NCBI RefSeq assembly: GCF_018977255.1
Contig: NW_024704742.1
Coordinates: 29,514,001-29,578,000, forward strand
Source: Callorhinchus milii
Lineage: Eukaryota
Direction of reading: 5' to 3'
DNA length: 64,000 bases
Made by a program: the position numbers and the translations under genes. The notes beneath the pieces are model-generated. The model saw only the letters and a program-made list of their open reading frames with translations. It did no database searches and was not told the origin of the DNA. Of this stretch, positions 20,532 to 54,293 are shown in pieces. Numbering within the stretch: the stretch's first letter is position 1; every line of letters starts with the position of its first letter.

Positions 20532-22479
20532 TGGAACAGGGTTAGAGTTAGACGGATCCCATGAAAATCACCTGCAAAAAGCGATCAAAGTCTTCTGAGA
20601 GCAATGCTGTTGTTGCAAAGTAATTTTTTCTTTAATTCAACCCTTTTTTGAAAAAAACGTAACAGCGTTATTTGACAATCGCTTTAGCACAAAATCACCA
20701 CATGATTCGAATTAAGTTACGTGTTGGTGAGTCCCATACCATCAATGCCGTTGGGTTTATTGCAGGGAAGATTGCAGGGTTAAAAACATTCACAGTGGAT
20801 TATAAAAGTGTAAAGTCTAACATATTAGTCTGATGTTATTATTTTACAAGATGCAGCAAGAGATTTTTGGCTCACACACACACACACACACAAACACAAA
20901 ACAGAACCAGTTATCTAGAAATACTGTACAAAGCTTCTGGTTGTCTCAGTTAACAATCGCAATTCCATTTGAAGGTATACAAATAAATGATTTTCATACT
21001 TACAGTCAATTGCTGGAAAGTTGTTGTCATGTTGAGCACAGTTCTCTTGCCTGAGGATTGTGGTTTTGCTGAGTTAGGGTTTATATTTGCTACCCAAGTT
21101 TCATTTGACGCATTTCGCAATCAGTCACTGGGGCCAATGAACTCCCATTTCGATATGTTATCATCCTACCAGGACATGTTCAAATAAAAGGAATCGAAAA
21201 TTGAAAATGGAAGACACAGCAGGTTAAAGAAGCCACAACCTCAAGAGTTTCAAAAGCCTCCTTCACGAGTAAAGAATGGGACATTACTGTGAGCAAATTG
21301 GCCGCCACATTTGTCTAAAATACAATATGATGTTTTTAGCACCTTCCATATGGGGAGGACATCCCAAAGCACTTGACAATTCTGCCTGGGCACTGGAGCT
21401 GTGGGTGGGAGATGAGGGGGTGAGGAGGAGAAATTACAGTCTGCACTTTACTGTGGATCCTGTGAAACGTATTGAAACCTCTTGCTACATGAATGATGTC
21501 ACGTCAACTGCATTTGCTGTGTGCAATTGGCTGCCGCGTTTTGGCAACAAAATATACAGCTAATCTACTTTACAACATATCCTGTGAAGCGCTTTGAGAC
21601 GTCTTAACGATGTGATAAGGCTCTACACCAACTGCAAGGATTCTTAATATTAATAAGGCACTTGGACTAACGTGGGTAGGGCAATCTTCAGCATCGCTTC
21701 AATGTTTTCCACTCAGGGTATGAGGTACTTCCATTGTAACACCATTCTGCTGTCCCTCCGCCTCGCCCCATCCCTTGCCTCCTTCAAGACCCTCCTCTTC
21801 AACTGGGCCTTCAATCACCCTCCTTCCCCCTCTGCTCTCCACCCTTCCTGATCCTGATCCCAGCTCGGGCTCGAAACACTGATTGTCCAGCGCCTTGGGA
21901 CATCCTCCTGCCGTGTAAGACACAATACAAATGTAATTTTGCTGTTGTTGTATTTCCTTCCCAGTTGCTTCACCCCCTTCTGGGAAGATAGGGAAATGTC
22001 TGTAGTGAAACAGGGAGATTTCCAGTCTTCACTAACCTGTTGCTGAGTATCTTAGGACACTGAGGCAGTTTGATGGCAGGAATGCCTATTTGCCAAAGCC
22101 CCTCACACAAGGACTGGTTGTGGTGGCAGTGGAGGCAGTGGAGGAGTGTAAAGTTCAGAATGAGGATTGAACCTTCTCTTTGACCGAGCCTTCAGCTCCC
22201 CTCTCGACTCTCTACACCCCATCGCTCCCTCCCTTCCCTCCCCTCACCCTGACCATGTCCCCCTGCTCGGGTCCTGACCCAACTGTACAGCGCCTTGGGA
22301 TGTCCTCCCGATGTGAAAGGCGCTTTATAAATGGAATCTTGTTGTTGTTGTTGTTGAACCGTTGAGCAAACAGAGCCTTGGGTGTAAGAGGATCGAGGCT
22401 GCAAACCCTGGGTGAGCTGGAGCTTGGGGGTGCGGGAGAGTTTATTAGAGGGAATTCTCTCCCTTAATCCCTCCGCTTT

Positions 22480-22700
22480 GCCCCCTCCTCCATTTTCGGA
22501 TCATGCCTTAAGCGCTTCCCCTTTGACGTGTCTACGGTCACCTCGCACCCCCCCCACCCCATCCCCGCCCGGCTCGGCATCGCGTGCTCAAATAATAATA
22601 ATAATGATTTATTGTTAATAATTTAAAAAGATTAAAGGACCACGGGCTCAAATAGGAGCCGCGACAACTTCCGTGTGAGAAGTTTTTTTAAGAGAAAGGG
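22480..22700. promoter_or_regulatory. Candidate CpG-rich (possibly bidirectional) promoter between malate synthase and RAB33B
   Basis: Local CpG enrichment, GC box ccccgccc (~22563), ETS-type acttccg (~22666) and tgacgt half-site (~22524). Lies between two divergently oriented genes. No transcript evidence. Confidence 0.4.
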
Positions 22701-22736
22701 GGAAAAAAGAACAGGCCAACTCACTGTTAGCCCCTG

Positions 22737-23090
22737 ATGAACCCCCCCGCCCTCCTCCCCTGCCAGCCCCCCTCCCTGCCAGCCCCCCCCTGCCAGCCCT
22801 CCTCCCCTGCCAGACCCCCTCCATGCCAGACCCCCCTCTGCCAGACCCCCTCCCTGCCAGACCCCCCCCCTGCCAGACCCCCTCCATGCCAGACCCCCCC
22901 TCTGCCAGACCCCCCCCTGCCAGATCCCCTCCCTGCCAGACCCCCCCCCTGCCAGACCCCCTCCCTGCCAGCCCCCCTCCCTGCCAGCCCCCCTCCCTGC
23001 CAGACCCCCCCTCTGCCAGACCCCCTCCCTGCCAGACCCCCTCCCTGCCAGACCCCCACCCCTGCCAGCCCCCACCCCCCCGCCAGCCCT
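22737..23090 (+). repeat. C-rich minisatellite (~CCCCCTCCCTGCCAGA)n
   Basis: Directly visible tandem units with variable C-run length. Confidence 0.95.
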
Positions 23091-23327
23091 GTGCTGGGAG
23101 CTGATGTGCACATTGCTCAGGGGAGACTTTCCAGCAGCACCAGCCACAACAGGGAGGGCGATCAGTGCTGCTCTCACGATAGATTCCCTGCAGTTTATTG
23201 CCTTTTCTTAGTGGGTTTGGGTCTGAGTCTGACTGTGTTTATATCTGTGTGGCATTTGTGACTGGCGGGGGGGGGGGGGATAAGCCTTTTGAGAGGCAGG
23301 AGAGTGGACCGAGGGCAGATTGGTGGC

Positions 23328-24050
23328 CAGGGCAGGGCAGGGTGGACAGGGCAAGGCAGGGCAGGGCTGGCAAGGCAGGGCAGGGCAGGGCGGGCAGGGC
23401 AAGGCAGGCAGGGCGGGCAGGGCAAGGCAGGCAGGGTAGGGCAGGCTGGGCAGGGCAGGGCAGGGCAAGGCAGGCAGGGTAGGGCAGGCTGGGCAGGGCG
23501 GGCAGGGCAGGGCAAGGCAGGGTAAGGCAGGGCAGGGCAGGGCAGGGCAGGGCAAGGCAGGGTAGGGCAGGGCAGGGCGGGCAGGGCAAGGCAGGCAGGG
23601 TAGGGCAGGCTGGGCAGGGCAAGGCAAGGCAGGGCAGGGCAAGGCAAGGCAGGGCAGGGCAGGGCAGGGCAGGGCTGGCAAGGCAGGCGGCAGGGCGGGC
23701 AGGGCAAGGCAGGCAGGGCAGGGCAGGGCGGGCAGGGCAAGGTCGGGCAGGGCAAGGCAGGGCAGGGCAGGGCAAGGCAAGGCAAGGCAGGGCAGGGTGG
23801 GCAGGGCAAGGCAAGGCAGGGCGGGCAGGGCAGGGCAGGCAGGGCAGGGTGGGCAGGGCAAGGCAAGGCAGGGCGGGCAGGGCAGGGCAAGGCAGGGTAA
23901 GGCAGGGCAGGGCAGGGCAGGGCAGGGCAAGGCAGGGCGGCAGGGCAAGGCAGGCAGGGTAGGGCAGGCTGGGCAGGGCAGGGCAAGGCAAGGCAGGGCG
24001 GGCAGGGCAAGGCAAGGCAAGGCAGGGCAGGGCAGGCAGGGCAGGGTAGG
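23328..24050 (+). repeat. (GGGCA/AGGCA)n pentamer satellite
   Basis: About 720 bp of degenerate pentamers; source of the spurious PALPC-repeat ORFs. Confidence 0.95.
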
Positions 24051-24144
24051 GGGACTTTACCAAGGACGGTGAACCATTGCAGGGTTGTGGTTTAGTTGCT
24101 GAGCTCCGGCCTCCTCTCTGTTGCTCGGCCCTGGTCTGATCTGC

Positions 24145-24686
24145 AGGGGACAGGGGGACAGGCAGTGAGGGAGGGGGACAGGCAGTGAGGGAGGGGGACA
24201 GGCAGTGAGGGAGGGAGGGGGACAGGCAGTGAGGGAGGGGGACAGGCAGTGAGGGAGGGAGGGAGGGAGGGAGGGGGACAGGCAGTGAGGGAGGGGGACA
24301 GGCAGTGAGGGAGGGGACGGGCAGTGAGGGAGGGAGGAGGGGAGGGAGGGGGACGGGCAGTGAGGGAGGGAGGGGGACAGGCAGTGAGGGAGGGAGGAGG
24401 GAGGAGGCAGTGACGCAGGGAGGTCAGGCAGGGGAGGCAGAGAGAGAGGCAAGTAGGCCAGACAGGCAGTGAGGGAGGGGGACAGGCAGACAGGGCAGGG
24501 AGAGGAGGCGGGGAGGGGGGGGGGACAGGCAGACAGGGCAGGGAGGGGAGGGCAGGGAGGGGGACAGGCGGGGAGGGGAGGGCAGGGAGGGGAGGGCAGG
24601 GAGGGGGACAGGCAGGGAGGGAGGGAGGGCAGGACAGGCAGGGAGGGGAGGGCAGGGAGGGGGGAGGCGGGGAGGGAGGGGGAGGG
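24145..24686 (+). repeat. G-rich minisatellite (GGGGGACAGGCAGTGAGGGA)n decaying into G-runs up to the RAB33B ATG
   Basis: 20-bp unit with 4-bp GGGA indels, directly visible. Confidence 0.9.
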
Positions 24687-25725
24687 ATGGCCTCCGCTCC
24701 GCTGCCGCTCGGGCCGCCCCCGCGGTGTCGGATCCTGAAGATGATAGTGATCGGGGACTCGGGAGTCGGGAAGACTTGTCTCACATTCCGCTTCTGCGCC
24801 GGAAAATTCCCCAACAAAACCGAGGCCACGATCGGGGTGGATTTCCGTGAGAAAACAGTGGAGATCGACGGCGAGAAAATCAAGGTATAGCGGGTCATGT
24901 CTGTACCTCACACTCACACACATATACACACACACATACATACACACACACATACATAAACACACACACATACATAAACACACACACATACATACACACA
25001 TACACACACACATACACACACACATACACATACATACATACACATACATACACACACACACATACATACACACACACACACATACATACATACATACATA
25101 CACACATACATACATACACACACATACATACACATACATACACACACACATATATATACATACATATACATACATACACACATACATACATACACACACA
25201 TACATATACATACATACACACATACATACATACACACACACATACATACATATACATACACACACACACATACACACACACACACATACATACACACACA
25301 CATATACATACACACATACATACACACATACATATACATACATACACACACACATACACACACACATACATACACACACACATATACATACACACACACA
25401 CATACACACACACATACACACACACATAAACACACATACATACACACACATACATACACACACACATACACACACACACATACACACACACACACATATA
25501 CAAACACACACACACATACATACACACACACATACATACACATACACACACGCACAAACACACATACATACACACACACACATATACATACACACATACA
25601 TACACACCCACATACACATACATACACACACATATACATATATGCACACATATATATACACACACATACACACACGTACATATATACACATATATGTACA
25701 CACACATACACACACACACATATAT

Positions 25726-25762
<37 letters not shown>

Positions 25763-28700
25763 ACACATACACATACATACACACTGGGTGCACACACACA
25801 TACACACACACATATATACATACACACACACATATATATATATACAAACACACACATATATACATATACACACACATACATACATATATATACACATACA
25901 CACACACATACATACACATATACATATATATATACACATACACATACATACACATACATACACACTGGGTACACACACACACATACTGGGTAGACACACA
26001 CATACATACACACTGGGGTACACATACACTGGGTACACATACACTGGGTACACACACACTGGGGTACAGCATACACACACACGCTGGGTACACACACACA
26101 CTGGAGTACACATACACACTGGGTACACACACACACGAACACTCTGGGGTACAGCACACACACACACTCACACACTTTGGGGTACAGCACACACACACAT
26201 ACACTTTGGGGTACAGCACACACAAACACACACACACTCTGGGGCACAGCACACACACACACACACACACACTGTACAGCACACACACACACTGTACAGC
26301 ACACACACACACTTTGGGATACAGTGCATGCACACACACTTTGGGAAACAGTGCACGCACACACCTTGGGATACAGTGCACGCGCACACCTTGGGATACA
26401 GTGCACGCGCACACACTTTGGGACACAGTGCACGCACACACACCTTGGGATACAGTGCACACGCACACACTTTGGGGTACGGCACACACGCACACACTTT
26501 GGGGACGTGCTTGTTTTAAAACGTTTGTGTTTTGAAGGATTCGTTCAACGGTTGTCTTGCACTTTTTTTTGTCACTGTTTCTTTGTATTTTGGTTATTGT
26601 GATTTTTTCTTTAAAAAAGGTTTTCAAACGTCGTCCGACCTGTAAAAGCTTATCGATTTGCCGCACTCCAATGACTGGGCGGCGGTGAGGTGTCCGATGG
26701 AATTACTTTGTCATAATAATAATCCTTGCATTTGATACAGCACCTTATCACATCTTCGAAACGTCTCAAAGGTGCTTCACAGAATATACTTCTGTGAATA
26801 TATTCACAGATTGCAAAGTGGATTGACTGCATATTTTGTGGGCGAAACGCGGCAGCGAATTGCGCACAGCAGTGTCCCACAAACAGTCGTGGATTGAGTG
26901 ATCGCATTTTTTTTGAGTGAATGACGATGAATAACGATCCTCACTTTTAATGTTGCGTCTTTCATGCCAGGACGCTTCAAAGCGCCTCATAGGCTTCACT
27001 GTAAAATGTAGTGACTGTGTTTTTCAGGGGAACACGGCAGCCAATTTGCACGCACCAATGTGACGTAAACAGCCAGGGACTGAGTGACCAATTTTATCTG
27101 GGGGACTGTTGATCAGGACATTGTGAGACACCACCAGCTTCTCTTTTCCAGCTGTGCTATGGGATGTTTAAAGTCCACCTGAACAGTACACAGCGTGAAG
27201 ACCTTTGAGATGTCCTCCCGATATGGAAGGCACTGTATCAAATATCAAATGCAATTATTGTTGTTATTATTATTATATGAAGCGAGGGCACAAAACTAGG
27301 AGCGTCTGAGAACCGTTGTATTGATGAAATGTCACTTGAGCGAAACCAGAAAATGATAGAGGGTTAAAGGTAGTTGAGGGGAAAAGAAATGTTCAGCACG
27401 AAAGGGCAAACCAAACATTTGTGAAGGCAGCTTCAGCGATGGAGGAGGTGTGGGAATCCCCGTTGAAATAGAGAGGCCCAGAGTGAGGATGGAAGAAGGA
27501 TTAAGAGTAGTGTCTTAGATGGTAAGAGATGGTAATCGTTGACGAGATTAATAAGAGACTTGTGGATCTATATCTGTCTGGAATTGGAAAAAATAACATT
27601 ATTACTGTCTCATTGAAGTTTACTCATAATAAAATCTCCTGATTTTAGTACAATTTTCCCGATAAGCTTTTGGTACAATCGTAATACTCGGATTTCGTAC
27701 AGCGCCTTTCAAGTCAGAGGGACATCTCAAAAAAAATCTTAACAGGCGTTACCGTAAAATGTAGTGGCTGTGTAAGTTGTAGGCGAATACAGCAGTCAAT
27801 TTGCACACAACAATATTGCACAAGTAGCCACAAAGTGAATGAGCGGTTTTATTTGGGGGATTGTGGACCAAGATAACGAGGAGAAAGAGGCACTTCTCTT
27901 TTTCAAATAGTGCCATGGGATCTTTAATGTCCACCTTTAACCGGCAGTCGGGCCTTGATTTAACATCTCATCCGAAGCATACAATCTGTCAATGCAGCAC
28001 CTCTGTCCCCAGCACTGCGTTGGAGCTTCCGCCGAGACTTTACCAGTTCAAATCCCTGACGTGGAGCTTGAACGCGCTACCATCTGACTCAGAGCTGAGA
28101 GTGCTAGCGACTGAGCCAGGCTGACGCATGCTGTTGGTAGGATTTTTGAACCTTACAGCACAGAAGGAGGCCATTAGCCCCACAGCCCTGCAAATGTTTC
28201 CTTTTCAGATAGATGAAGTCCAGTTTCCGTTTGAAAGCTGCTATCGAATCTATTTCCCCCAGGGTTTCAGGCAGTATATTGCTATTTGGCCCAACAATCA
28301 ACCTTTGGCTTTTGGTTTTGTTTAATCCTTCAGATTCAGCTGTGGGACACTGCAGGCCAGGAGCGTTTTCGGAAGAGCATGGTGCAGCATTACTACAGGA
28401 ATGTCCACGCTGTGGTCTTTGTTTACGACATAACCAACATGGCCACCTTCCAGAGCCTCCCGGCCTGGATAGAGGAATGCAAGCAGCACTCGCTCGGCGG
28501 AGAAATCCCGCGCATCCTGGTGGGGAACAAGTGCGATCTGAAGGATGCCACCCAGGTCAGAACAGACCTGGCGCAGAAGTTTGCGGATACCCACAGCATG
28601 CCGCTGTTCGAAACCTCGGCCAAGAACCCGGGCGACAATGATCACGTTGAGGCCATTTTCATGACCTTAGCCCACAAACTGAAGAACCACAAGCCCATGA

Positions 28701-33030: not shown

Positions 33031-33593
33031 CCCGAAAGGGCTTGGGATTGTCATGTGGAATGGGGGTGCCGATCTGTGGAGGTTGCAAAAAAAATCGGAA
33101 GCAGTATTTTGTTCCCTCCACTCCTCCTCCTCCTCCTCCTCACCCTCCAGCAAGGAATCGAGGTGATCTTTTATGGCTTCCACTCCTCGACCTCACACAG
33201 CGGCTGTAACTGGCTGTACCATGGCCACCGGACTCGCTACTCACTGGTGTCACTTCGCGGTCACTTTTGAGGAGGTCAAGAATTGCAGCCGGGAGGGGTG
33301 GGGAGGGCGCCCGGGAACATTCCCGATTTTCCAAATACCCCGTACGCCTAACCCTCTTAAGCCCACACTGGCCACACACTTCTCAGGCACAACCCAAGAG
33401 CTTTCCTCATGCCCAGTTTATGTCCCAGTATCAACACAACCAACCAACCATAACAACCAACCACAACAACCAACCACAACAACCAACCAAGCTCTCCCTT
33501 CCTCAGCTCCTCCTCTTCCTCTGATGTTATCTTCAATTGTACATAAGTGGCATCGCGGAAGTAGAGAGGGGACTTTGGCCAAAGCACTTGGCC

Positions 33594-35273
33594 ATGGATG
33601 ATCGGGAGCAAAAGGGTATCAATCCCCGCAGTCAAAAAGGTGAGCTCGATGCAATCCAGGAGGCGAGTCCCGACGATGTTGGATTCAGATCTGCAATAAA
33701 TGATGAGTGGGCGATCTACAACGAGGATCCGGATAAATATCAATTCCTTTTTCAATCCCCCTGCTCCACAGCACCTGGTCTGAAGCCAACTTCTCTGCAC
33801 CGAGTGCAGGAAGCTTGGTCTGTAACGAAAGTGAAAGTATCGCGATACGATTCAGGGGCAAAAGGAACTTCATTACATCGATCAAAGTCCGATTTGAATT
33901 TCCTGCAAAGGGAGTTAACCCTCAATCTCTGTTATTTCTCCGGTGACATTGGAAACCTGGTGCAAGAGCTGCAGCCGAGCACAGAACCACTGGCCACGCT
34001 GTGCACTGACAGACAGTGCGGGGACAACGCACAGTGGATCACAGAGCTCGTACGTTACATACAGTCCTTGTCATGGGATCCGGGGAAACAGCACTCAATT
34101 CTGGTTAAAGTAGCAAAGGCTTTTATGCACAACAGTGACCCACATCTGCACTTCCACGAGAAGGTTTTCGTCCCCTCAATTCGTATGTATAAATACTGCA
34201 CTTTGTATAACTGTTTGCTGGAGATGGACAGAGAAGCTTTGGTACAGCTGGAGGCATCGGTGGAAGCAGCTCAAAATCTTGATGTGACTAAAGTGGATTT
34301 GGAGACTCTGGCTGAGCTACTCTGTGCTGATCTTTCCTGGAAACCTCTTGGTTACAGGCTCTTAGAACAACCGTCAACCTCCTCCTACATCGCCCTTTTC
34401 GACCATATCAAATGGCAAGAAAATTGGTGCAAAAGAGAATTTCTCCACGCTCTTCTCTTGTCAATCAAAACAAAACCAGATCAGGTGGAAACTTTCCACA
34501 ACTTGAGAGGAGACAAGATTTTCCTGCCCGCAGTCATCAACTCCAAGTGGGTAAAGAAACTAAAATGCCTGAAGTTACTGCTACACAAACATGTATTTAA
34601 AGAGGAAATCTCATTGAACAGAGTGATGTGGTGCAGTCCCACTGAGGCAGAGGTGTTTTTAGAGACACTGTCAGTCTTCGGATATCCACATATTGCCCAA
34701 GAGTTGGGTAAGTGCATGGGCAGCAGCAATGTTATCAGGTTCAGGGACGAGAAACCACCGAAACAGAAGACAAATACGAAAACATTCAGCAGCGCATATG
34801 TCACTGTCTTACCTGCAAATATCTCCTCTGAGAGTCGTCCACCCAAACTGCACTTACACACCAAACACTGGACACCCAACACTGCACGTGTAACTACAGC
34901 AACACGTTACTGTCATAGATATTGTAGGAAGCCCTCACTGCCTGACCCGTGGCTGTACCGAATGGCAGGAGCTCTGGCCTCTGAATGGACGGCAGTAGCC
35001 AGAGATTTTGGTTTCAGTGAGAGCGACATAGAGAAAACGGCAACTGATCCTTGGTACAACCACCAGCAGCGAATGTTCCACCTCCTGTACAGACTGTCAC
35101 ACGAGCAGCAGATGAGCTTCACAGAGCTGTGCTTCCTGCTGCTTTGTAAAGTCAGTGATTATAAATGTCACCGGCAAATACAGTGTATCATAGGAGCAGC
35201 ACTCAGTGCTGTTGAGCTGCAGGAAGACGTGGACTTATCTAGAAATGAGGGAGAGAACCTGTTCCAGAGGTAA
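33594..35273 (+). CDS. Copy A, 5' ORF (559 aa): variable N-terminus + death-fold region + death domain; stops just before the FIIND
   Basis: Kozak GCCATGG at 33594; uninterrupted ORF; DD-like LPDPWLYRMAGALASEWTAVARDFGFSESDIEK...QQRMFHLLYRL. TAA at 35271 where copy B has CAA. Could be a pseudogene. Confidence 0.6.
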   Translation: MDDREQKGINPRSQKGELDAIQEASPDDVGFRSAINDEWAIYNEDPDKYQFLFQSPCSTAPGLKPTSLHRVQEAWSVTKVKVSRYDSGAKGTSLHRSKSDLNFLQRELTLNLCYFSGDIGNLVQELQPSTEPLATLCTDRQCGDNAQWITELVRYIQSLSWDPGKQHSILVKVAKAFMHNSDPHLHFHEKVFVPSIRMYKYCTLYNCLLEMDREALVQLEASVEAAQNLDVTKVDLETLAELLCADLSWKPLGYRLLEQPSTSSYIALFDHIKWQENWCKREFLHALLLSIKTKPDQVETFHNLRGDKIFLPAVINSKWVKKLKCLKLLLHKHVFKEEISLNRVMWCSPTEAEVFLETLSVFGYPHIAQELGKCMGSSNVIRFRDEKPPKQKTNTKTFSSAYVTVLPANISSESRPPKLHLHTKHWTPNTARVTTATRYCHRYCRKPSLPDPWLYRMAGALASEWTAVARDFGFSESDIEKTATDPWYNHQQRMFHLLYRLSHEQQMSFTELCFLLLCKVSDYKCHRQIQCIIGAALSAVELQEDVDLSRNEGENLFQR

Positions 35274-37040
35274 CACATAAAGGTGCTGGAACATAAGACG
35301 CTTCGAGTGGTTTGTGGCCAGTGGAGTGAAGCCCCTGAGATGAGAGAGATCAGCCCGAAGGTGTTTGAAAGCTTCGTGGATCAGGTGTCCCTGGTTGGTC
35401 CTGTGTTTGATGTGCACACACAAACCAAAGGGACAAAGGTGATGGTGTTTCTTCCCACGTACACTCCGTGTGAAACTGAGCTGAGCCCCTCAGTTCTTGC
35501 AGAGAGTCTATTGACTCTTCTGACCATGAAATACCAAGATGTGGGGAATTGCTTGTGTAAGAAGTTAGAAGCAGTGCTAAGTGCAGAAGAGAAATCAAGA
35601 CTGTTTAAAGTCCTCCTACAGGAGGATTGTGAAGCTGCTGTGAAGCTGATCTTGTCAAAAGGGCAGAGAGCTCTTCAGCTGCTTTGTGAATACCTCAGGG
35701 CATCAGGCAGTGAGATGAGGTTGTGGCCGGCAAAGCTTCGCTCTCTGCTGGAAACATCACCCACCCAGGTCGGACACATCCAAGATGGAAACCTGGAGCT
35801 TGTGGTTCCACTCGCTGTGCTGGAAAGACACCTGTTGCTGTTCACAGAGTCCCTCTCTCCGCTAGCGGTCATAGAAAAGCTGCGAAGATTATTTACTCAG
35901 ACACGTGCTTACTGTTTGTTATACAAACCAGTGGGACGTCAGTACATTGACTGCAGAGTAACACTGAGGGTGTTTTTGATACCCAGGAGTGGCTCACTGG
36001 TGCAGGGACTGGATACAAAGCTGAAAGGTTATAAACGAGTGTTTATTTCAAATATCAGTATTAAAGGGAATGTTTGTTATAGACTACTCTTTAAGGACGT
36101 TACTTCTGACAATTCACTCCTTAGGGTCACTCCAAGAGATGGCAGTGAGTACAAGGAAGCACTGAGCCTTATGGATCCCATGACTAAGTATCTGATTGCT
36201 CTTAATATAAAGGACTGGGTCCAATGGCCTCTGGTGCTGCAGATTACACGAGACAAAAACTCTGTGATATTTGAGGAAACCATTGATGATGAAATGTTGC
36301 AGTTTGAAAATGGGGAATATTTCATTCTCAACCTCGATGGTAAGAAGCATTGTATCATGAGGATTCACCAAGAAATTAGTTACAAAGAATTCAGCCACAA
36401 ATTAAACACTGTGCTGCCGGAGAGAAAACTCTCTGTCTATTACAAACAAGATGGGATCCCTCTGCTGGTTAATAATGGACGTCCAAACGCTTCACAGAAT
36501 ATACTGTAAAGTGAATTGACTGTATATTTGTGGGCCAACGCGGCAGCCAATTGCGCGCAGCAACAAAGCGAGTGCTCTAACCACTGAGCTACAGGACTCC
36601 ACGATGATGAAAGCATCAAAATGATTCTGAGGGACCAATGCGGGAAAGATATTGTTCTGGAAGCTGAAGACATCATTGATGAGGTGATTACAGCAGGAAT
36701 GCAAGTGATGCCATTGGCCAGGTTACCTTCTCCAAATGAACCACTCAGCCGCCGGAGGCCATCTCCCACTGAACAGCATTTTGTGGTTCGACACAGGACA
36801 GCTTTAATTAAGAGGATCTCAGACATCAAAAGTCTTCTGGATGATCTGAGACATGAAAGTGTTATTAACGATAATGAATACCAGAGAATCAGAGGAGAAA
36901 ATATACGCAATGAACAAATCACACACACTGTAGATTACACTATTAACAAAGGGAAAAATGCAATGGATATATTTTATGAGAGTCTTTCCAAAAATGACCC
37001 GCACCTTGTTGAGGACTTGCAACTTAGGGAGATATCTTAA
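35274..37040 (+). pseudogene. Copy A, 3' part: FIIND - PB1-like - CARD, disconnected by an upstream stop and a SINE remnant
   Basis: Same frame as the 5' ORF and near-identical to copy B. SINE remnant at ~36477-36602 adds a TAA at 36507; CARD (QHFVVRHRTALIKRI...DPHLVEDL) ends at 37040. Confidence 0.75.
36477..36602 (-). mobile_element. Internally deleted SINE remnant inside the copy A PB1-like domain
   Basis: Antisense SINE core fused directly to SINE head; absent from copy B at LVNN|DES. Confidence 0.85.
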
Positions 37041-39100: not shown

Positions 39101-41278
39101 ATCTGTCTCCTACCCCCGCTCCTCCCCCTGGTACACCACCCACCTCCGCTCACTGAAAAGCCAGGTGCGGGCCGCTGAACGCACCTGTGTCAAATCTGGC
39201 CTAACGGTCCACCGACAAATCTGGCTGGACCTCCTCAAAATTTACCGCTCCACTCTAGCCTCGGCCAAGTCGTCCTTCTACTCCAGGATAATCCTGGAGG
39301 CGAAGAACAACCCCAGGCTACTGTTTTCCACCACAACCCGACTCCTCCGTCCCCCCCGCCACCCCGCGCAGGTCATCTCCTCCAACCTTCACTGCGAGGA
39401 GATGCTGGATTTCCTTGAATCCAAGATCAAGGGAATTCGCTCCGCGGTCACTTCCCCTCCAACATCCACCAACCCCCCACCCCCTCCTCCCACACTCCGA
39501 CTGCTACCCATCCTCCCCGACTCGTACCCGTTTCCCCACCCTCTGTCACCAAACTCATCCTATCCCTAAAACCAACCACCTGCTCCCTTGACCCCATCCC
39601 CACTCCACTCCTTATCTCCCAGCTCCACTTTCTTGCCCCACATATCACCGTCAACCTGTCCCTCTCCTCTGGCTCTGTCCCCATTCCCTTAAAAACTGCC
39701 ACCATCACGCCCACCCTGAAAAAACCCTCCCTTGATGCGTCGCAGCTATCAAGCTACCGGCCCATCTCCAACCTCCCCTTTCTCTCCAAGGTCCTGGAAA
39801 GAGTTGTCGCCTCCCAACTGCGCTCTTTCCTTTCCACCCATTCATTTTTCGAACCCCTTCAGTCAGGTTTCCGTGCTGCCCATAGCACAGAAACTGCCCT
39901 GGTCAAGGTCACCAATGATATCCTGACCATCTGTGACCAGGGCTCCCTCTGCCTCCTCGTCCTCCTCGACCTATCGGCAGCATTCGATACGGTCGACCAC
40001 GCTATCCTACTCCACCGCTTGTCCTCCCACCTCAACCTTCAAGGCACTGTCCTTGAGTGGTTTAGGTCGTACCTTTCTCACCGTCTTCACTTTGTCTCCA
40101 CGAATGGCTTCTCCTCCACCCCCCGCACTGTCTCATGTGGTGTCCCTCAGGGCTCTGTCCTCGGTCCCCTCCTCTTCACCCTCTATATGCTCCCCCTTGG
40201 TGACATCATCCGCAGACATGGGTTAACTTCCACATGTATGCGGATGACACCCAACTCTACCTTTCCTCCTCTACTCTCAACTCCACGACCACCGATGTCC
40301 TGACAGCCTGCCTGTCCGACATCGAGTCCTGGACGAGAGACAACTTTCTTCAGCTCAACGTGCGAAAAACCGAGGCCCTCCTGATTGGCTCACGTCAGCG
40401 CCTCCGCACCTCAGGCGCTGACACCATCAGCATCCAAGGCTGCACTCTCCACCTCTCAAAGCCAGTCAGGAACCTCGGCGTTTTGTTCGACCCTGAGCTG
40501 TCCTTTCTCCCTCACATCCGCACCACAACTGGCACCGCCTTCCATCACCTCCGGAACATCGCCAGACTACGGCACTACCTCACCCCTCACGCTGCTGAAA
40601 CCCTGGTCCACGCCTTTGTCACCTCAAGGCTGGACTATGGGAACTCTCTCCTCGCCGGCCTTCCCGCCACCTCCCTCCACAAGCTGCAGGTCATTCAGAA
40701 CTCTGCAGCTCGTGTACTGTCCCGCACCAGGCTTCGGGACCACATCACTCCCACCCTCGCTCGCCTCCACTGGCTCCCCATCCCCCAGAGGATTGATTTC
40801 AAGATCCTCATCCTCACCTACAAGGCCATTCACGGCCTTGCTCCCTCCTACCTCTCTGACCTACTATCCCCCTACCTACCTGCCCGTACCCTCCGTTCCT
40901 CCGGCTCCGGTCTGCTCCACGTCCCCCGCCCCAACCGCCCTACCATCGGTGGTCGGGCCTTCAGCCTCTCAGCCCCGAGGCTCTGGAACTCCATCCCCCA
41001 GTGCCTTCGCCGCCTCCTCCCTCTCCTCCTTCAAGGCCGGTCTCAAAACCTTTCTCTTTGACCGTGCCTTCAGCTCCCCTCTCGACTCTCTTCCCCCTCC
41101 TCGCTCCCTCCCTTCCCTCCCTCACCCTGACCATTTCCCCCTCCTCGCTCCCTCCCTTCCCTCCCCTCACCCTGACCATTTNCCCCCCTGCTCGGGTCCT
41201 GACCCAACTGTGCAGCGCCTTGGGACGTCCTCCTGACGTGAAAGGCGCTTTATAAATGGAATCTTGTTGTTGTTGTTG
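39101..41278 (+). mobile_element. L2 LINE, 5'-truncated young copy with RT domain
   Basis: [64 protein letters not shown]; few frameshifts; (TTG)n tail. Confidence 0.95.
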
Positions 41279-43530: not shown

Positions 43531-43721
43531 TTCCAGGCAGGGACTCAATGGGTGTAAAGAGTGTAGACACATTTACTTGACACCATGTTACTTTCAAATA
43601 TAGGTTTTATTAAAGTTTGAACAGACAAATCAGCTATACTGTATCCCTTATACAGCTTCACTAAGCAACGGACAGAATTAAAATCATATTACCCACTACT
43701 CCTCCTCTTTCACCTTTAATC

Positions 43722-44240
43722 GAATTCAAGATCCTCATCCTCACCTACAAGGCCATACACGGCCTTGCTCCCTCCTACCTCTCCGACCTACTATCCCCCG
43801 ACTTACCTGCCCGTACCCTCCGTTCCTCTGGCTCCGGTCTGCTGCACATCCCCCGCCCTAACCGCCCTACCATCCGTGGCCGGGCTTTCAGCCTCTCAGC
43901 CCCTGGGCTCTGGAACTCCATCCCCCAGTGCCTTCTCCCTTTCCTCCTTCAAGGCCGGTCTCACGACCTTTCTCTTTGACCGTGCCTTCAGCTCCCCTCT
44001 CGACTCTCTACCCCCTCCTCGCTCCCTCCCTTCCTTCCCCTCACCCTGACCATTTCCCCCTCCTCGCTCCCTCCCTTCCCTCCCCTCACCCTGACCATTT
44101 CCCCCCTGCTCGGGTCCTGACCCAACTGTCCAGCGCCTTGGGATGTCCTCCCAACGTGAAAGGCGCTCTATAAATGGAATCTTGTTGTTGTTGTCCTCCC
44201 GACGTGAAAGGCGCTCCATAAATGAAATGCTGTTGTTGTA
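43722..44240 (+). mobile_element. L2 LINE 3' end with duplicated tail
   Basis: Matches 40795-41278; terminal ~45 bp repeated at 44194-44238. Confidence 0.85.
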
Positions 44241-44290
44241 TCTTGTTGTTAATAGTCACTTTCTTACTGGAGATAAATTCCTTCATCCCC

Positions 44291-44766
44291 GTACATATAC
44301 ACAGATGCAGTAGAATCGATAGGGATTCCACTGGGAAGTGGGCTGACCCTCTATACAACTCCAACTATTTCAGTGTTACATCTTTCTTTTATGTATTTCT
44401 AACTCCACCTCCCTTGTCACAGAGATAGCCCCCACCTTTCGCAGGCTGCTTTGTACAGAGAGAGATATGGACAACTTCTGGGCAGCTTTCCACAGCCTGC
44501 TTTGTTTCTCAGCCTTGAGATACGCAGGTGTCTGAGGCTGTAGCCTTTTCTTTCTGTGGTCCATTCTTCTTGCATCTATCCTGAAGGTCCCGATTGCTCA
44601 TTATCTCATAGGAGTGAACATCTTCCCAGGAAAATATGAAATGTAATCAGAAGCTAACCTCAACCTGTCCAGCAAAGCTACTTTTAACCTCCACTTCTTC
44701 TGGAACATTCGGTTGCTGCTATCAATACACTAATGTATCGTGAAGTGATAGTCAGTATATTTCAAC
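44291..44766 (+). repeat. Direct repeat, copy 1 (copy B stop codon + 3' flank)
   Basis: Highly similar to 48995-49468; weaker similarity also between ~43660-43720 and ~48790-48850. Confidence 0.85.
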
Positions 44767-47727
44767 AAGAGTCCCCTGAGACATCTCCCTACATTTCAAG
44801 TCATCAACAAGGTATGGGTCATTGTTGCAAAGACTTTTAAAAAACAAATCCATTGCATTTTCCCCTTTCTTAATCGTGTAATCTAACATGCAGGTGATTT
44901 GTTCATTGCGAATATTTTCTCCTCTGATTCTCTGGTATTCATTATCGTTAATAATACTTTCATGTCTCAGATCATCCAGAAGACTTTTGATGTCTGAGAT
45001 CCTCTTAATTAAAGCTGTCCTGTGTCGAACCACAAAATGCTGTTCAGTGGGAGATGGCCTCCGGCAGCTGAGTGGTTCATTTAAAGAAGGTAAACTGGCC
45101 GATTGCACTACTTGGGATTCTGCTTTAATTATCTCATCAATGATGTCTTCACCTTCCAGCATAATGTTTCCCTTCTCTTGTTGCTGCACAATTAGGCTGA
45201 TACTTTCGTCATTATTAACCAGCAGAGGGATCCCATCTTGTTTGTAATAGACAGAGAGTTTTCTCTCCGGCAGCACAGTGTTTAATTTGTGGCTGAATTC
45301 TCTGTAACTAATTTCTTGGTGAATCCTCATGATACAATGATTCTTACCATCAAGGTTGAGAATGAAATATTCCGCATTTTCAAACTGCAATATTTCATCA
45401 TCAATGGTTTCCTCAAATATCACAGAGTTTTTGTCTCGTGTAATCTGCAGCACCAGAGGCCATTGGACCCAGTCCTTTATATTAAGAGCAATCAGATACT
45501 TAGTCATGGGATCCATAAGGCTCAGTGCTTCCTTGTACTCACTGCCATCTCTTGGAGTGACCCTAAGGAGTGAATTGTCAGAAGTAACGTCCTTAAAGAG
45601 TAGTCTATAACAAACATTCCCTTTAATACTGATATTTGAAATAAACACTCGTTTATAACCTTTCAGCTTTGTATCCAGTCCCTGCACCAGTGAGCCACTC
45701 CTGGGTATCAAAAACACCCTCAGTGTTACTCTGCAGTCAATGTACTGACGTCCCACTGGTTTGTATAACAAACAGTAAGCACGTGTCTGAGTAAATAATC
45801 TTCGCAGCTTTTCTATGACCGCTAGCGGAGAGAGGGACTCTGTGAACAGCAACAGGTGTCTTTCCAGCACAGCGAGTGGAACCACAAGCTCCAGGTTTCC
45901 ATCTTGGATGTGTCCGACCTGGGTGGGTGATGTTTCCAGCAGAGAGCGAAGCTTTGCCGGCCACGACCTCATCTCACTGCCTGATGCCCTGAGGTATTCA
46001 CAAAGCAGCTGAAGAGCTCTCTGCCCTTTTGACAAGATCAGCTTCACAGCAGCTTCACAATCCTCCTGTAGGAGGACTTTAAACAGTCTTGATTTCTCTT
46101 CTGCACTTAGCACTGCTTCTAACTTCTTACACAAGCAATTCCCCACATCTTGGTATTTCATGGTCAGAAGAGTCAATAGACTCTCTGCAAGAACTGAGGG
46201 GCTCAGCTCAGTTTCACACGGAGTGTACGTGGGAAGAAACACCATCACCTTTGTCCCTTTGGTTTGTGTGTGCACATCAAACACAGGACCAACCAGGGAC
46301 ACCTGATCCACGAAGCTTTCAAACACCTTCGGGCTGATCTCTCTCATCTCAGGGGCTTCACTCCACTGGCCACAAACCACTCGAAGCGTCTTATGTTCCA
46401 GCACCTTTATGTGTTGCCTCTGGAACAGGTTCTCTCCCTCATTTCTAGATAAGTCCACGTCTTCCTGCAGCTCAACAGCACTGAGTGCTGCTCCTATGAT
46501 ACACTGTATTTGCCGGTGACATTTATAATCACTGACTTTACAAAGCAGCAGGAAGCACAGCTCTGTGAAGCTCATCTGCTGCTCGTGTGTCAGTCTGTAC
46601 AGGAGGTGGAACATTCGCTGCTGGTGGTTGTACCAAGGATCAGTTGCCGTTTTCTCTATGTCGCTCTCACTGAAACCAAAATCTCTGGCTACTGCCGTCC
46701 ATTCAGAGGCCAGAGCTCCTGCCATTCGGTACAGCCACGGGTCAGGCAGTGAGGGCTTCCTACAATATCTATGACAGTAACGTGTTGCTGTAGTTACACG
46801 TGCAGTGTTGGGTGTCCAGTGTTTGGTGTGTAAGTGCAGTTTGGGTGGACGACTCTCAGAGGAGATATTTGCAGGTAAGACAGTGACATATGAGCTGTTG
46901 TCTGTTTTCGTACTTGTCTTCTGTTTCAGTGGTTTCTCGTCCCTGAACCTGATAACATTGCTGCTGCCCATGCACTTACCCAACTCTTGGGCAATATGTG
47001 GATATCCGAAGACTGACAGTGTCTCTAAAAACACCTCTGCCTCAGTGGGACTGCACCACATCACTCTGTTCAATGAGATTTCCTCTTTAAATACATGTTT
47101 GTGTAGCAGTAACTTCAGGCATTTTAGTTTCTTTGCCCACTTGGAGTTGATGACTGCGGGCAGGAAAATCTTGTCTCCTCTCAAGTTGTGGAAAGTTTCC
47201 ACCTGATCTGGTTTTGTTTTGATTGACAAGAGAAGAGCGTGGAGAAATTCTCTTTTGCACCAATTTTCTTGCCGTTTGATATGGTCGAAAAGGGCGATGT
47301 AGGAGGAGATTGACGGTTGTTCTAAGAGCCTGTAACCAAGAGGTTTCCAGGAAAGATCAGCACAGAGTAGCTCAGCCAGAGTCTCCAAATCCACTTTAGT
47401 CACATCAAGATTTTCAGCCGCTTCCACCGAAGTCTCCAGCTGTACCAAAGCTTCTCTGTCCATCTCCAGCAAACAGTTATACACATCCTTGAACGCAGCC
47501 ATATCACTTCCGTAAAACAAGTAATTGAACTCTGTTGGGTCCAAGTGGTTGTTGCTGCTTTGTACGAGAGCTTTTGCCAGTTGGAGCAGGTTTCCCTGTG
47601 AGTCCTGTTCACCGCAGCAGGTCTGTAATGTACTGATGAGTTGTGTGTTGTGTTCACACAGGCTGTCAGTGCACAGAGTGGGAGGCGGCTCTGGGTCGCC
47701 CACCAGTTGTTGCACAAGAAAAGTCAT
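44752..47727 (-). CDS. Copy B: intronless NLRP1/CARD8-like protein, death-fold/DD - FIIND - PB1-like - CARD (991 aa from first in-frame ATG)
   Basis: Open for about 1000 codons. DD ~46750-46485. FIIND ~46400-45400 (VGPVFDV, VFLP, QVGH at 45912, ESL|SPLAV with Ser at 45831, CLLYK, VTLRVFLIP). PB1-like ~45370-45145. CARD ~45045-44795. The ancestral start is probably the Kozak ATG at 48326, now cut off by a frameshift and a TAG. Confidence 0.8.
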   Translation of the reverse strand: MTFLVQQLVGDPEPPPTLCTDSLCEHNTQLISTLQTCCGEQDSQGNLLQLAKALVQSSNNHLDPTEFNYLFYGSDMAAFKDVYNCLLEMDREALVQLETSVEAAENLDVTKVDLETLAELLCADLSWKPLGYRLLEQPSISSYIALFDHIKRQENWCKREFLHALLLSIKTKPDQVETFHNLRGDKIFLPAVINSKWAKKLKCLKLLLHKHVFKEEISLNRVMWCSPTEAEVFLETLSVFGYPHIAQELGKCMGSSNVIRFRDEKPLKQKTSTKTDNSSYVTVLPANISSESRPPKLHLHTKHWTPNTARVTTATRYCHRYCRKPSLPDPWLYRMAGALASEWTAVARDFGFSESDIEKTATDPWYNHQQRMFHLLYRLTHEQQMSFTELCFLLLCKVSDYKCHRQIQCIIGAALSAVELQEDVDLSRNEGENLFQRQHIKVLEHKTLRVVCGQWSEAPEMREISPKVFESFVDQVSLVGPVFDVHTQTKGTKVMVFLPTYTPCETELSPSVLAESLLTLLTMKYQDVGNCLCKKLEAVLSAEEKSRLFKVLLQEDCEAAVKLILSKGQRALQLLCEYLRASGSEMRSWPAKLRSLLETSPTQVGHIQDGNLELVVPLAVLERHLLLFTESLSPLAVIEKLRRLFTQTRAYCLLYKPVGRQYIDCRVTLRVFLIPRSGSLVQGLDTKLKGYKRVFISNISIKGNVCYRLLFKDVTSDNSLLRVTPRDGSEYKEALSLMDPMTKYLIALNIKDWVQWPLVLQITRDKNSVIFEETIDDEILQFENAEYFILNLDGKNHCIMRIHQEISYREFSHKLNTVLPERKLSVYYKQDGIPLLVNNDESISLIVQQQEKGNIMLEGEDIIDEIIKAESQVVQSASLPSLNEPLSCRRPSPTEQHFVVRHRTALIKRISDIKSLLDDLRHESIINDNEYQRIRGENIRNEQITCMLDYTIKKGENAMDLFFKSLCNNDPYLVDDLKCREMSQGTLVEIY

Positions 47728-48326
47728 GTCACCCTTCAGATCACGGAGACAGTCCCTCACGCAGATTAGCAGCTATCTGTCTGCACCCGAATAGGTTGAG
47801 AGGCTCCTACACTGTCTGTGGGCAATAAAGGCTTTTGGCAAGAACTTTTTTCTGCTAAATGTCCTGATACCACAGCGCGTTTCCTGATCCGAGACCAATA
47901 GGAAGTCTCTTAATATTGGCTCGTAACAGTCTTCCCCACTCTCCATTATACAGTCATTGCTGATCTCCAGTGCAGATGCAGAAGCTGATGTGTTATCAAT
48001 GTTATACCCAGATTCAAATACAGAAGCTGATTCTTCAGGTTGCAAACAGCAATTTGTTATTGTGCCGGGGGGCCCTTACTGATCGTGGCCGCTGGTGTCT
48101 CGGGGCTGTTGAGGTTCAGTCGCCGCCGAATCCACTTTCTCAGTCGCAGAAAAGCCCGTCTGAGAGTGTGTGAGGCACCGGCCTGAGCGGCTTCTGCATC
48201 TGCCACTTCTCTCCGCTCCCGAAAAGGCAGGGCTCGGCCGCGGGATGATTTGTGGCCCCGTTTCCTCTTCACTTGGGAATCGGTTGTCTCTTGCTCTTTA
48301 TCACGATCCCTCTCCACGTCAGCCAT
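47728..48326 (-). pseudogene. Disrupted ancestral N-terminal extension of copy B
   Basis: GCCATGG at 48326 (MADVERDRDKEQ...). C6 run at 48067-48072 where copy C has C7; in-frame TAG at 47773-47775 where copy C has CAG. Repairing both gives one 1191-aa ORF. Confidence 0.7.
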
Positions 48327-48994
48327 GGCAGGACTTGGACTGTAACTTGGCTTCCGCGATTGCCAGAACTTTACAGAAACAGGAAGGGCTGGAACCTGGT
48401 GGGGAAGATCTCGTTGCTGATGTAACGATGAGGTAAAATGTCAGCAGTAATAAAACTTTGGGGAAAGCCTTGAATTGACAAAACAATAAGCCAGGGAATG
48501 GACCTCAACATACAGGGCAGAGATCAGCTCCTGGAAATCCTCAGGGACAATTGATTCTGTAACACAAAACATAATAGGGACTGGTGCCCGGTAACCCTCG
48601 GACACAACCAATCCTATATAAAACATACACAGCAGAGATCACAGAACTATCACACAGAATCACAGAGAGTGGCTCCTGTAAACTCAACAGAAAGAATCGG
48701 CTCTTAGCCCAGCATTTCACTCGTGCTTGCATAACCTGACTTCCGCATTTCAAATGGACCAACCACTACAACTGTTATTTCCTCTCTGCCTAATAAACAG
48801 AACCAAAAACATATTAACCACTCCTCCTCCACTTTCACTTTTAATTTTGAACTCATTTTAATTTTTTTACCTCACCCCTCAGGCCGCTGAACCTCTTGTT
48901 CATGCCTTCAGCACCAAACTCTGTGAACCCATCTCCCCTATTCTTGCCCAACTCCATTGACTCCCTATCCTTCAGAGGATCCAGTTCAAGATCC

Positions 48995-49468
48995 TACATA
49001 TACATGGATGCAATAGAATCGATAGCGATTCCATTGGGAAGTGGGCTGACCCTCTACACAACTCCAACTATTTCAAAGTTATATCTTTCTTTTATATGTT
49101 TTTAACTCCATCTCCCCTTGACACAGAGATAGCCCCCACCCTTCACAGGCTGCTTTGTACAGAGAGAGATAGGGACAACTTCTGGGCAGCCTTCCACAGC
49201 CTGCTTTGTTTCTCAACCTTTGTGATAGGCAGGTGTCTGAGGCTGTAGCCTTTTCTTTCTGTGGTCCACTGTTCTTACATCTATGCTCAAGGACCTGATT
49301 CCTCATTATCTCAGAGGAGTGAACATCTTCCCAGGAAAATATGAAATGTAATCAGAAGCTAACCTCAACCTATCCAGCAAAGCACTTTTAACCATTTAAC
49401 TATCAACCTTCTTGAACATTTGGTTGCTCCTATCAATATATCCCGAGGTAACAGTCAGTATATTTCAA
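48995..49468 (+). repeat. Direct repeat, copy 2 (upstream of copy B)
   Basis: Matches 44291-44766, including agtcagtatatttcaa (the antisense EIY-stop of copy B). Confidence 0.85.
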
Positions 49469-52645: not shown

Positions 52646-54293
52646 GAATCCAAAATCAAGGGAATCCGCTCCGCGGTCACTCCCCCTCCAACTCCCACCC
52701 ACCCCCCACACTCCGACTCCTACTCATCCTCCCCTGCACACCTTCGTACCCGTTTCCCCATCCTCTGTCACCAAACTCATCCTGTCCCTGAAACCCACCA
52801 CCTGCTCCCTTGACCCCATCCCCACTCCATCTCTCAGCTCCACCTCCTTGCCCCACATATCACAGACATCATCAACATGTTCCTCTCCTCTGGCTCTGTT
52901 CCCATTCCCCTAAAAACTGCCATCATCACTCCCACTTTGAAAAATCCCTCCCTTGATGCGTCGCAGCTATCAAGCTACCGGCCCATCTCCAACCTCCCCT
53001 TCCTGTCCAAGGTCCTTGAAAGAGTTGTCGCCTCCCAGCTGCGCTCTTTCCTCTCCACCCATTCATTATTCGAACCCCTTCAGTCGGGTTTCCGTGCTGC
53101 CCATAGCACAGAAACTGCCCTGGTCAAGGTCACCAATGACATCCTGACCATCTGTGACCAGGGCTCCCTCTGCCTCCTCGTCCTCCTCGACCTATCGGCA
53201 GCATTCGATACGGTCGACCACGCTATCCTCCTCCACCGCTTGTCCTCCCACCTCAACCTTCAAGGCCCTGTCCTTGAATGGTTTAGGTCGTACCTCTCCC
53301 ACCGTCTTCATTTTGTTTCCACAAATGGCTTTTCCTCCACCCCCAGCACTGTCTCATGCGGTGTCCCTCAGGTCTCTGTCCTCGGTCCCCTCCTCTTCAC
53401 CCTCTATATGCTCCCCCTTGGTGACATCATCCGCAGACATGGGGTTAACTTCCACATGTATGCGGATGACACCCAACTCTACCTTTCCTCCTCTACCCTC
53501 AACTCCACGACCACCGATGTCCTGACAGCCTGCCTGTCCGACATCGAGTCCTGGACGAGAGACAACTTTCTTCAGCTCAACGTGCGCAAAACTGAGGCCC
53601 TCCTGATTGGCTCACGTCAGCGCCTCCGCACCTCAGGCGCTGACAGCATCAGCATCCAAGGCTGCACTCTCCACCTCTCAAAGCCATTAGGAACCTCGGG
53701 GTTTTGTTCGACCCTGAGCTGTCCTTTCTCCCTCATATCCGCGCCACAACTGGCACCGCCTTCCATCACCTCCGGAACATCGCCAGACTACGGCACTACC
53801 TCACCCCTCACGCTGCTGAAACTCTGGTCCACGCCTTTATCACCTCAAGGCTGGACTATGGGAACTCTCTCCTCGCCGGCCTTCCCGCCACCTCCCTCCA
53901 CAAGCTGCAGGTCATTCAGAACTCGTGTACTGTCCCGCACCAGGCTTCGTGGCCACATCACTCCCACCCTCGCTCGCCTCCACTGGCTCCCCATCCCCCA
54001 GAGGATCGAATTCAAGATACTCATCCTCGCCTACAAGGCCATTCACGGCCTTGCTCCCTCCTACCTCTCCGACCTACTATCCCCTATTTACCTGCCCGTA
54101 TCCTCCGTTCCTCTGGCTCCGGTCTGCTCCACAACCCCCTTCCCTACACCCTCCCCTCACCCTCCCTTCCCTCCCCTCACCCTGACCATTTATCCCCTGC
54201 TCAGGTCCTGACCCAACTCTCCAGTGCTTTGGGACATCCTCCCGACGTGAAAGGCGCTCTATAAATGGAGTCTCGTTGTTGTTGTTGTTGTTG
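52646..54293 (+). mobile_element. L2 LINE young copy with RT domain, inserted into an older antisense L2 (52395-52645 and 54295-54695)
   Basis: 444-aa ORF with MYADDTQLY; near-identical to 39420-41278; the flanks join into one antisense L2 fragment. Confidence 0.93.

Follow-up and report, generated by a model that had tools for sequence, protein, structure and literature searches.

The control of NLRP1 and CARD8 consists of the restraint of a UPA-CARD fragment by the N-terminal fragment, which bears ZU5. For CARD8 and for rat NLRP1, PMC11760013 reports that the C-terminal fragment is restrained via the ZU5 on the N-terminal side. In CARD8, H270 and S297 are 27 residues apart, and the F296H variant is severely defective in cleavage, which is nearly abolished (PMC3210808). 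CARD8- and NLRP1-like proteins also exist in the great white shark; PMC11258412 names them without domain detail. Here we analyzed a 64,000-nucleotide stretch of Callorhinchus milii DNA (assembly GCF_018977255.1, contig NW_024704742.1, positions 29,514,001 to 29,578,000, forward strand), hereafter the window, to which all coordinates of gene B and of its neighbourhood refer. The gene under study, gene B, is an uninterrupted 1006-codon open reading frame (ORF) at 44752-47772 (-) with no internal stop. An earlier inspection of the window (the original prediction) had proposed that a CARD-like helical domain is inserted inside the ZU5 half of the FIIND of this protein. We found a conserved, in-frame insert at this place. 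Our reading of the locus, to which we give a probability of roughly 0.6, is that gene B codes for a relative of the FIIND-CARD proteins in which a death-fold is nested within ZU5, that the nested module was acquired by exon shuffling, and that it would function through death-fold contacts.

In the gene B protein the sequence VFLPTYTPC occupies residues 511-519 and TQVGH residues 617-621, so that 97 in-frame residues (520-616; 45925-46215, -) lie between them. The ~95 added residues announced by the original prediction were thus found, and the coordinates given then (45925..46216) were right at the start and one base too far at the end, since 45925-46215 makes exactly 97 codons. The insert had also been expected in a second gene of the window, copy A, at ~35470-35760, and it is there, at 35472-35762 (+), with 290 of 291 bases identical to the gene B insert and a single Ser-to-Leu change. 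All nine full or near-full proteins of the family carry it, in frame, with a length of 92-103 residues. Seven of its residues are invariant (L567, L578, R602, W604, P605, L611 and L612, that is, an R-x-W-P motif plus LL). The insert has a mean pairwise identity of 0.41; values for the N-terminal, ZU5, UPA and CARD parts range over 0.48-0.61 (0.55 for the segment before the insert, 0.61 for that after it, 0.50 for the UPA-like region and 0.55 for the CARD), and the Death-like region reaches 0.79. The family falls into two subgroups, and a KG motif in the insert is present in one only (five of nine members) and absent from the other four. The insert is a real and conserved protein feature.

The same stretch would look open by chance if it were a retained intron, or an artefact of assembly or annotation, and its location on a canonical intron position (see below), an acceptor-like CAG/G at its 3′ end (here and below a slash marks an exon boundary) and the failure to find any public run recorded as RNA that holds gene B are what such an explanation would draw on. 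We consider it very improbable. The stretch is conserved at the protein level in 9/9 homologs, with seven other shark species represented and with the R-x-W-P and LL residues invariant, it is predicted to fold in both AlphaFold2 models described below, and the two gene copies are identical in it save one base. The only donor-like site is weak (GTGAAA), and splicing with the sole plausible donor-acceptor pair would excise 299 bases, which puts the rest out of frame; an unspliced intron was rejected on these grounds. Furthermore, contigs from four public runs (two studies) cross the insert without a joint and none skips it, although the type of these runs is only guessed and they are hence no proof of expression.

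The family was delimited by database searches. Against 1.84 billion representative proteins, phmmer returned five proteins, every one a family member, and word-indexed database searches returned three, nine and four proteins, again all of them family members. These large searches reached no insert-free or distant relative and no canonical FIIND protein. Seven other shark species contribute the named members, whose records all read 'uncharacterized'; within these searches, the family appears to be restricted to sharks. Full-text literature searches found no paper on a FIIND protein with a nested domain, nor any on this shark family. At the DNA level, no copy of the insert other than those of gene B and copy A was found within the window, and in the whole assembly no further relative of the insert was found beyond a decayed third family copy on another contig. 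A transposon origin of the insert, considered as a candidate, was rejected for want of other copies.

To place the insert relative to a canonical FIIND, a reference was needed, and since the databases yielded no canonical protein, the window's own assembly was searched with the Pfam FIIND profile (PF13553). Four ZU5 exon-1 pieces (profile positions 7-91) and three exon-2 pieces (from 79, 82 or 86 to 127 or 129) were detected on two other contigs. All four exon-1 pieces end with G/GT four residues past LP(H)F, and all three exon-2 pieces begin at AG/G, so that the intron between them is in phase 1. In the three canonical exon pairs the LPHF and HVK(D/E) strands are joined by 15-17 residues, compared with 104 in gene B, which is a net excess of 87-89 residues. 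This excess begins 3-4 residues after LPTY, which locates the insert on the canonical intron position. Sequence comparison thus puts the insertion point at the phase-1 intron by which the ZU5 of this genome's canonical FIIND genes is interrupted, a coincidence that the original prediction had not noted. The residues had been called extra relative to the short loop of NLRP1; no FIIND of NLRP1 or CARD8 could be aligned, so for NLRP1 itself this comparison was not obtained, and it is against the three exon pairs of the same genome that the residues are extra.

On the C-terminal side of the insert, homology to ZU5 is clear from the alignments. The segment that follows the insert (residues 617-647; 45832-45924, -) matched canonical exon 2 of three genes with an hhalign P of 6e-8 over 77-78 columns, the alignment beginning one or two residues past the insert and setting S-L-S-P on S-F-S, and BLASTP gave an E of 2e-5. 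The Pfam FIIND profile matched directly after the insert in all nine proteins at E<0.05 (profile 85/88 to 127/129), with one member (P0012) above the cut-off at 28.3 bits. In gene B this match covers residues 615-656 and profile positions 86-127 of 131. On the N-terminal side, the segment before the insert (residues 431-519; 46216-46482, -), which ends with GPVFDVHT...VFLPTYTPC, is likely to be the first two thirds of the ZU5-like domain. It aligned with canonical exon 1 in a colinear manner over 44 columns, with LPTY on LPHF at the end (hhalign P 0.003), and none of 200 column shuffles reached this score. The claim that the insert lies inside the ZU5 half is therefore firm for the C-terminal flank (P 6e-8; Pfam match in 9/9) and weaker for the N-terminal one, where P is 0.003 and an off-target control, given below, did equally well.

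The fold of the insert was predicted with AlphaFold2. In a model of the 428-residue ZU5-insert-UPA region (7 sequences) the mean predicted local distance difference test score (pLDDT) was 36.6 overall; the one confident part of this model was the insert, a set of six helices with 10-residue block means of 52-88. The isolated insert (9 sequences) gave a pLDDT of 72.1, a predicted template modelling (TM) score of 0.58 and the same six helices, at residues ~525-538, 540-553, 557-568, 572-580, 584-598 and 606-614. The helices of the predicted models are antiparallel and in a death-fold arrangement, as is characteristic of the CARD subfamily. Each insert model was compared by VIA-align with 48,161 solved chains, with no Foldseek pre-filter. 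Rows 1-14 were CARDs without exception, and death-folds made up about 44 of the 50 rows shown, with five others and one unclear, a count based on entry titles and on where we take the CARD to lie in the Apaf-1, Dark, CED-4, cIAP1 and RIG-I entries of the hit list; the target domain was nearly fully covered. A second, independently built insert model led to the same outcome in the fold search. Foldseek also ranked CARDs first, with the caspase-1 CARD at a probability of 0.96, TM scores of 0.55/0.62 and an E of 0.39. These predictions suggest that the insert is probably a death-fold, a view that we hold because of the make-up of the hit list rather than because of any score.

Several results weigh against this reading of the locus, and those that concern the fold are given first. 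Foldseek gave no match to the insert at E<=0.001, its best E being the 0.39 quoted above, and the isolated insert had no CARD or Death match in Pfam at E<=10. In full-length Pfam scans the insert yielded a second CARD stretch (PF00619) in none of the nine proteins. Comparison of the insert with the family's own CARD by hhalign gave P values of 0.13 and 0.38; the same comparison of the CARD with the Death-like region failed likewise, which implies a low power of this test, and the best local alignment, which was non-significant, set the SKG of the insert on the KKG of the CARD. The best ESM Atlas score obtained with the insert was 0.86, with unrelated bacterial clusters, and the insert models were built on only seven and nine sequences. 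As to the CARD-like helical domain of the original prediction, structure prediction bears it out, with six helices and CARDs at the top of the fold search, and the sequence motif on which it had leaned does not, given the hhalign values and a KG that four of nine members lack.

The insert could, then, be a helical bundle or spacer that is specific to the lineage and unrelated to death-folds, with a CARD-like topology that is convergent or generic. A generic bundle is expected to draw mixed helical matches from a large set of structures, whereas here the first 14 rows were CARDs and most of those shown were death-folds, with the second model in agreement. In addition, the order and the lengths of the helices and the placement of S/T-x-x-E and KG match CARD helices 3-5 in register. 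We regard such a bundle as unlikely, and a death-fold as the better description of residues 520-616.

Other results that weigh against the reading concern the flanks. The FIIND score of gene B is below the cut-off (17.6 against 25.8 bits), as are those of eight of the nine family members. The segment before the insert aligned with exon 2, used as an off-target control, with an hhalign P of 0.002, as good as that obtained with exon 1. In AlphaFold2 the beta parts of ZU5 and UPA remained unfolded (pLDDT <50), and no single sandwich around the insert was seen in the model. The check proposed with the original prediction, that the split ZU5 strands should reassemble around a six-helix bundle, thus gave the bundle and not the strands. 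No FIIND structure was among the Foldseek matches of the low-confidence 428-residue model. Sequence searches of the PDB with the fragments before and after the insert returned only chance-level matches, and those with the whole protein and the family profile matched nothing but CARDs; in the CARD8 and NLRP1 entries the FIIND part stayed unaligned.

If these flanks were not halves of one domain, the protein would read as a linker, a free-standing CARD-like domain, a C-terminal ZU5 remnant, UPA and CARD, with no nesting at all. The 80 residues before the insert, which have no match in Pfam at E<=10, no relevant one in the PDB and no usable one in the ESM Atlas, are in keeping with such an order, and so are the single FIIND stretch that Pfam reports at E<=10 in each of the nine proteins, always after the insert, the exon-1 score that does not exceed its control, and the lack of confident beta structure. 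However, a remnant of 31 residues would be unable to fold alone, and 89 plus 31 residues come close to the 131 positions of the Pfam ZU5-like model. Moreover, GP-x-F-D-V, a hydrophobic strand and L-P-x-Y are colinear with the GPLF(D/N), strand and LPHF that close all four exon-1 pieces, a match that no shuffle equalled, and the insert starts 3-4 residues past L-P-x-Y, exactly where the canonical exon 1 ends. We consider an un-nested order improbable, and a death-fold nested in ZU5 remains the interpretation that we follow.

The last results that weigh against the reading concern cleavage. S-L-S-P (residues 646-649; 45826-45837, -) stands where canonical proteins have the self-cleavage site S-F↓S-P. 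Its Ser-Pro pair is invariant in the nine family proteins, and position P1, which is Phe in the canonical motif, is Leu in the window protein, His in four members and Cys in four; Phe, and with it the S-F↓S motif, occurs in none, a departure on which the original prediction had not remarked. What speaks for the ZU5 placement is the spacing from H621 (45910-45912) to S648, 27 residues as in one canonical gene of the assembly (L006) and as between the corresponding CARD8 residues. At the position of H621, six members have His and three have Gln. By analogy with CARD8, the family may cleave poorly or not at all, and the loss of the P1 Phe together with the defect of CARD8 F296H means that an N-terminal 'fragment' possibly does not exist.

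As for its origin, the likely course is exon shuffling, by which an exon for a death-fold entered the ZU5 intron, followed by a loss of the introns, perhaps via a processed copy. We favour this because the insert sits on a phase-1 intron position, because it is, in net terms, about as long as a CARD exon, and because gene B is intronless over 3 kb when its canonical relatives are multi-exon; as the present gene is one ORF, all introns would have been lost subsequently. In the canonical gene the CARD is encoded by one exon of about 84 codons, preceded by an acceptor that is probably in phase 1. A tblastn search of the canonical loci with the nine insert peptides found nothing better than E 0.01 over 19 residues, and no insert-like ORF was found in their introns.

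We propose that gene B codes for a relative of the FIIND-CARD-type sensors, in which a six-helix death-fold (residues 520-616) would be nested in a ZU5-like loop, between the LPxY strand and the strand that bears H621. The insert ends 32 residues upstream of the serine at the cleavage position and hence belongs to the N-terminal, inhibitory side. The nested death-fold would act through death-fold contacts, and two modes can be envisaged. It might cap the C-terminal CARD of the same protein and so add a second lock to the ZU5-UPA clamp; UPA-CARD would then be released when the N-terminal fragment is degraded. Alternatively, it might dock another CARD protein onto the N-terminal fragment. The roles put forward in the original prediction, autoinhibitor, decoy or adaptor on that fragment, would be candidates of this kind. 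If cleavage is poor or absent, the nested module could be the main switch instead of a second lock. A predicted complex of the insert with the C-terminal CARD scored 0.00, which gave no verdict and is uninformative either way. The boldest version of this proposal, namely that an exon-inserted module serves as a CARD-type lock, or as a second signalling port, that binds the protein's own CARD or that of caspase or ASC, with two locks removed jointly by N-terminal degradation, or else as a death-fold switch that replaced self-cleavage after the loss of the P1 Phe, is doubtful.

The data point to an insert on the canonical FIIND intron position and to a putative built-in regulator without prior description. 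If the proposal is true, gene B would be a clear case of exon shuffling that nested one immune signalling domain inside another, and a checkable example, in vertebrate innate immunity, of domain nesting at an intron position. The family would also offer a natural variant, with a death-fold inside ZU5, beside a catalytic-type His and ahead of an altered cleavage motif, with which FIIND control can be probed. One question is whether the output CARD can be capped by a CARD located on the inhibitory side. A second question is whether a FIIND can signal without Phe-Ser cleavage.

The remaining parts of gene B, which has no introns across its 3 kb, follow one another as an N-terminal region of ~340 residues with no assignment, the Death-like region, the ZU5-like piece with the insert, S-L-S-P, the UPA-like region and the CARD. 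The stop codon is at 44752-44754 and the first in-frame ATG is at residue 16 (47725-47727). An in-frame stop (47773-47775, -) lies directly upstream of the ORF, and beyond it the open stretch 47773-48075 (-) is similar to the N-terminal part of both copy A and the homologs. The gene may start at the ATG of residue 16, without ~100 N-terminal residues, or its 5′ end may be damaged. The Death-domain-like region (residues 343-428; 46489-46746, -) is the most conserved part of the family. Pfam Death (PF00531) matched residues 347-422 of gene B with an E of 0.017 and 15.7 bits, against a cut-off of 22.6; in the family it was found in eight of nine proteins at E 0.0008-0.1, every score being below the cut-off, and was not reported for P0008, a homolog in which the Death-like region is partially duplicated internally. 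The UPA-like region covers residues 648-880 (45133-45831, -), and Pfam UPA-FIIND (PF23679) matched it weakly in three of nine family proteins (E 0.026-0.066). The C-terminal CARD (residues 912-992; 44797-45039, -) is recognized by Pfam with an E of 5e-19, and its best PDB sequence matches were CARD8 CARD entries (E 1.5e-11 to 6.5e-10), with ASC and NLRP1 also found. At the end of the UPA-like region, before the CARD, residues ~803-880 (45133-45366, -) possibly form a PB1-like (beta-grasp) domain: Pfam PB1 was weakly matched at the same relative place in three sequences (E 0.0067, 0.064 and 0.11), and PB1 domains topped the Foldseek list for the low-confidence 428-residue model (E 0.09, probability 0.9). 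To our knowledge, canonical FIIND-CARD proteins have no PB1-like domain.

Copy A (33525-37040, +) is 99% identical to gene B over 34204-36481 (2278 bases), and upstream of 34204 only distant similarity to gene B is seen. Its reading frame is interrupted at 35271-35273, where CAA is replaced by the stop TAA. Foreign DNA of about 175 bp (36482-36656), which also matches sequence near 50.7-50.9 kb of the window, precedes its CARD, which is encoded in the ORF 36588-37040. The pattern of similarity to gene B suggests a mosaic origin or gene conversion. P0005, a database protein with 481 residues that is 96% identical, resembles a gene model that starts past the stop of copy A and has the insertion spliced out. 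The third family copy of the genome (L010, C10:16533576-16536716) is decayed and frameshifted; the C-terminal half of its insert and the ZU5 strands after it are in different frames with stops around, and it resembles the subgroup of other sharks with His at P1. Between and beside the gene copies of the window, reverse-transcriptase ORFs of the long interspersed nuclear element (LINE) type were found at 39419-41061 (+) and 52814-54211 (+), with Pfam RVT_1 E values of 1e-25 and 4e-33. The regions 43700-44300 and 48900-49100, with word depths of thousands in all four public runs versus ~10 for gene B, are copies of a high-copy repeat that flank the gene. Farther away, 22000-26700 is G+C-rich with a strong purine skew (GC 0.64 at 22-24 kb, AT skew 0.47 at 24-26 kb) and has long open frames in nearly all six frames, with no Pfam match, and a low-complexity repeat is the probable explanation.

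CARD-type folds that do not serve as the signalling output of the protein that carries them are known elsewhere. The CARD of cIAP1 and CARD-only proteins such as ICEBERG are intramolecular or decoy inhibitors, the former also by the title of entry 3t6p. The cIAP1 entries 3t6p and 2l9m were among the structural matches to the insert, and ICEBERG was found solely as a sequence match to the C-terminal CARD. No sequence similarity was found between the insert and these proteins. With the ZU5-UPA-Death proteins of the PIDD1, UNC5 and ankyrin type, gene B shares the combination of a ZU5-UPA core with a Death domain. In those proteins, however, Death follows UPA, whereas in gene B the Death-like region precedes ZU5 and a CARD follows UPA, and we know of no ZU5-UPA-Death protein with a domain nested in ZU5. 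A gene of this assembly on contig C11 (L001, L005 and L013; ~17.31-17.33 Mb) combines ZU5-UPA with a Death exon (E 6.9e-8), and like gene B it has S-L-S-P at the cleavage position.

The canonical FIIND-CARD genes on contig C8 (L002-L004, L006, L007 and L011) share with gene B the strands GPLF...LPHF and (I/F)HVK(D/E)...S/T-F-S...(L/V)H(L/V)Y(F/V)(V/I)PN, as well as a CARD after UPA. Unlike gene B they are multi-exon; a phase-1 intron takes the place of the insert, the bridge is 15-17 residues long and the intron contains no insert-like ORF. Three exon-1 and two exon-2 ZU5 pieces lie within ~27 kb of this contig (~9.75-9.78 Mb), and in at least one of the genes a UPA piece and one CARD exon (E 2.9e-18) follow; the arrangement looks like a tandem array of CARD8/NLRP1-like genes.

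With CARD8 and NLRP1 themselves, gene B has in common the C-terminal CARD, the C-terminal ZU5 strands, the Ser-Pro, a His 27 residues upstream and a UPA-like region thereafter. No FIIND sequence of either protein aligned significantly to the family. The gene B protein can be likened to CARD8 and NLRP1 in its presumed working, as a distant relative that, with eight of nine members under the Pfam FIIND cut-off and no S-F-S, stands outside the canonical definition. It differs from them in a ~90-residue predicted death-fold within ZU5 and in the Leu, His or Cys that takes the place of Phe at P1, and it adds a Death-like domain, a 340-residue N-terminal region and a possible PB1-like piece, all in one intronless gene.

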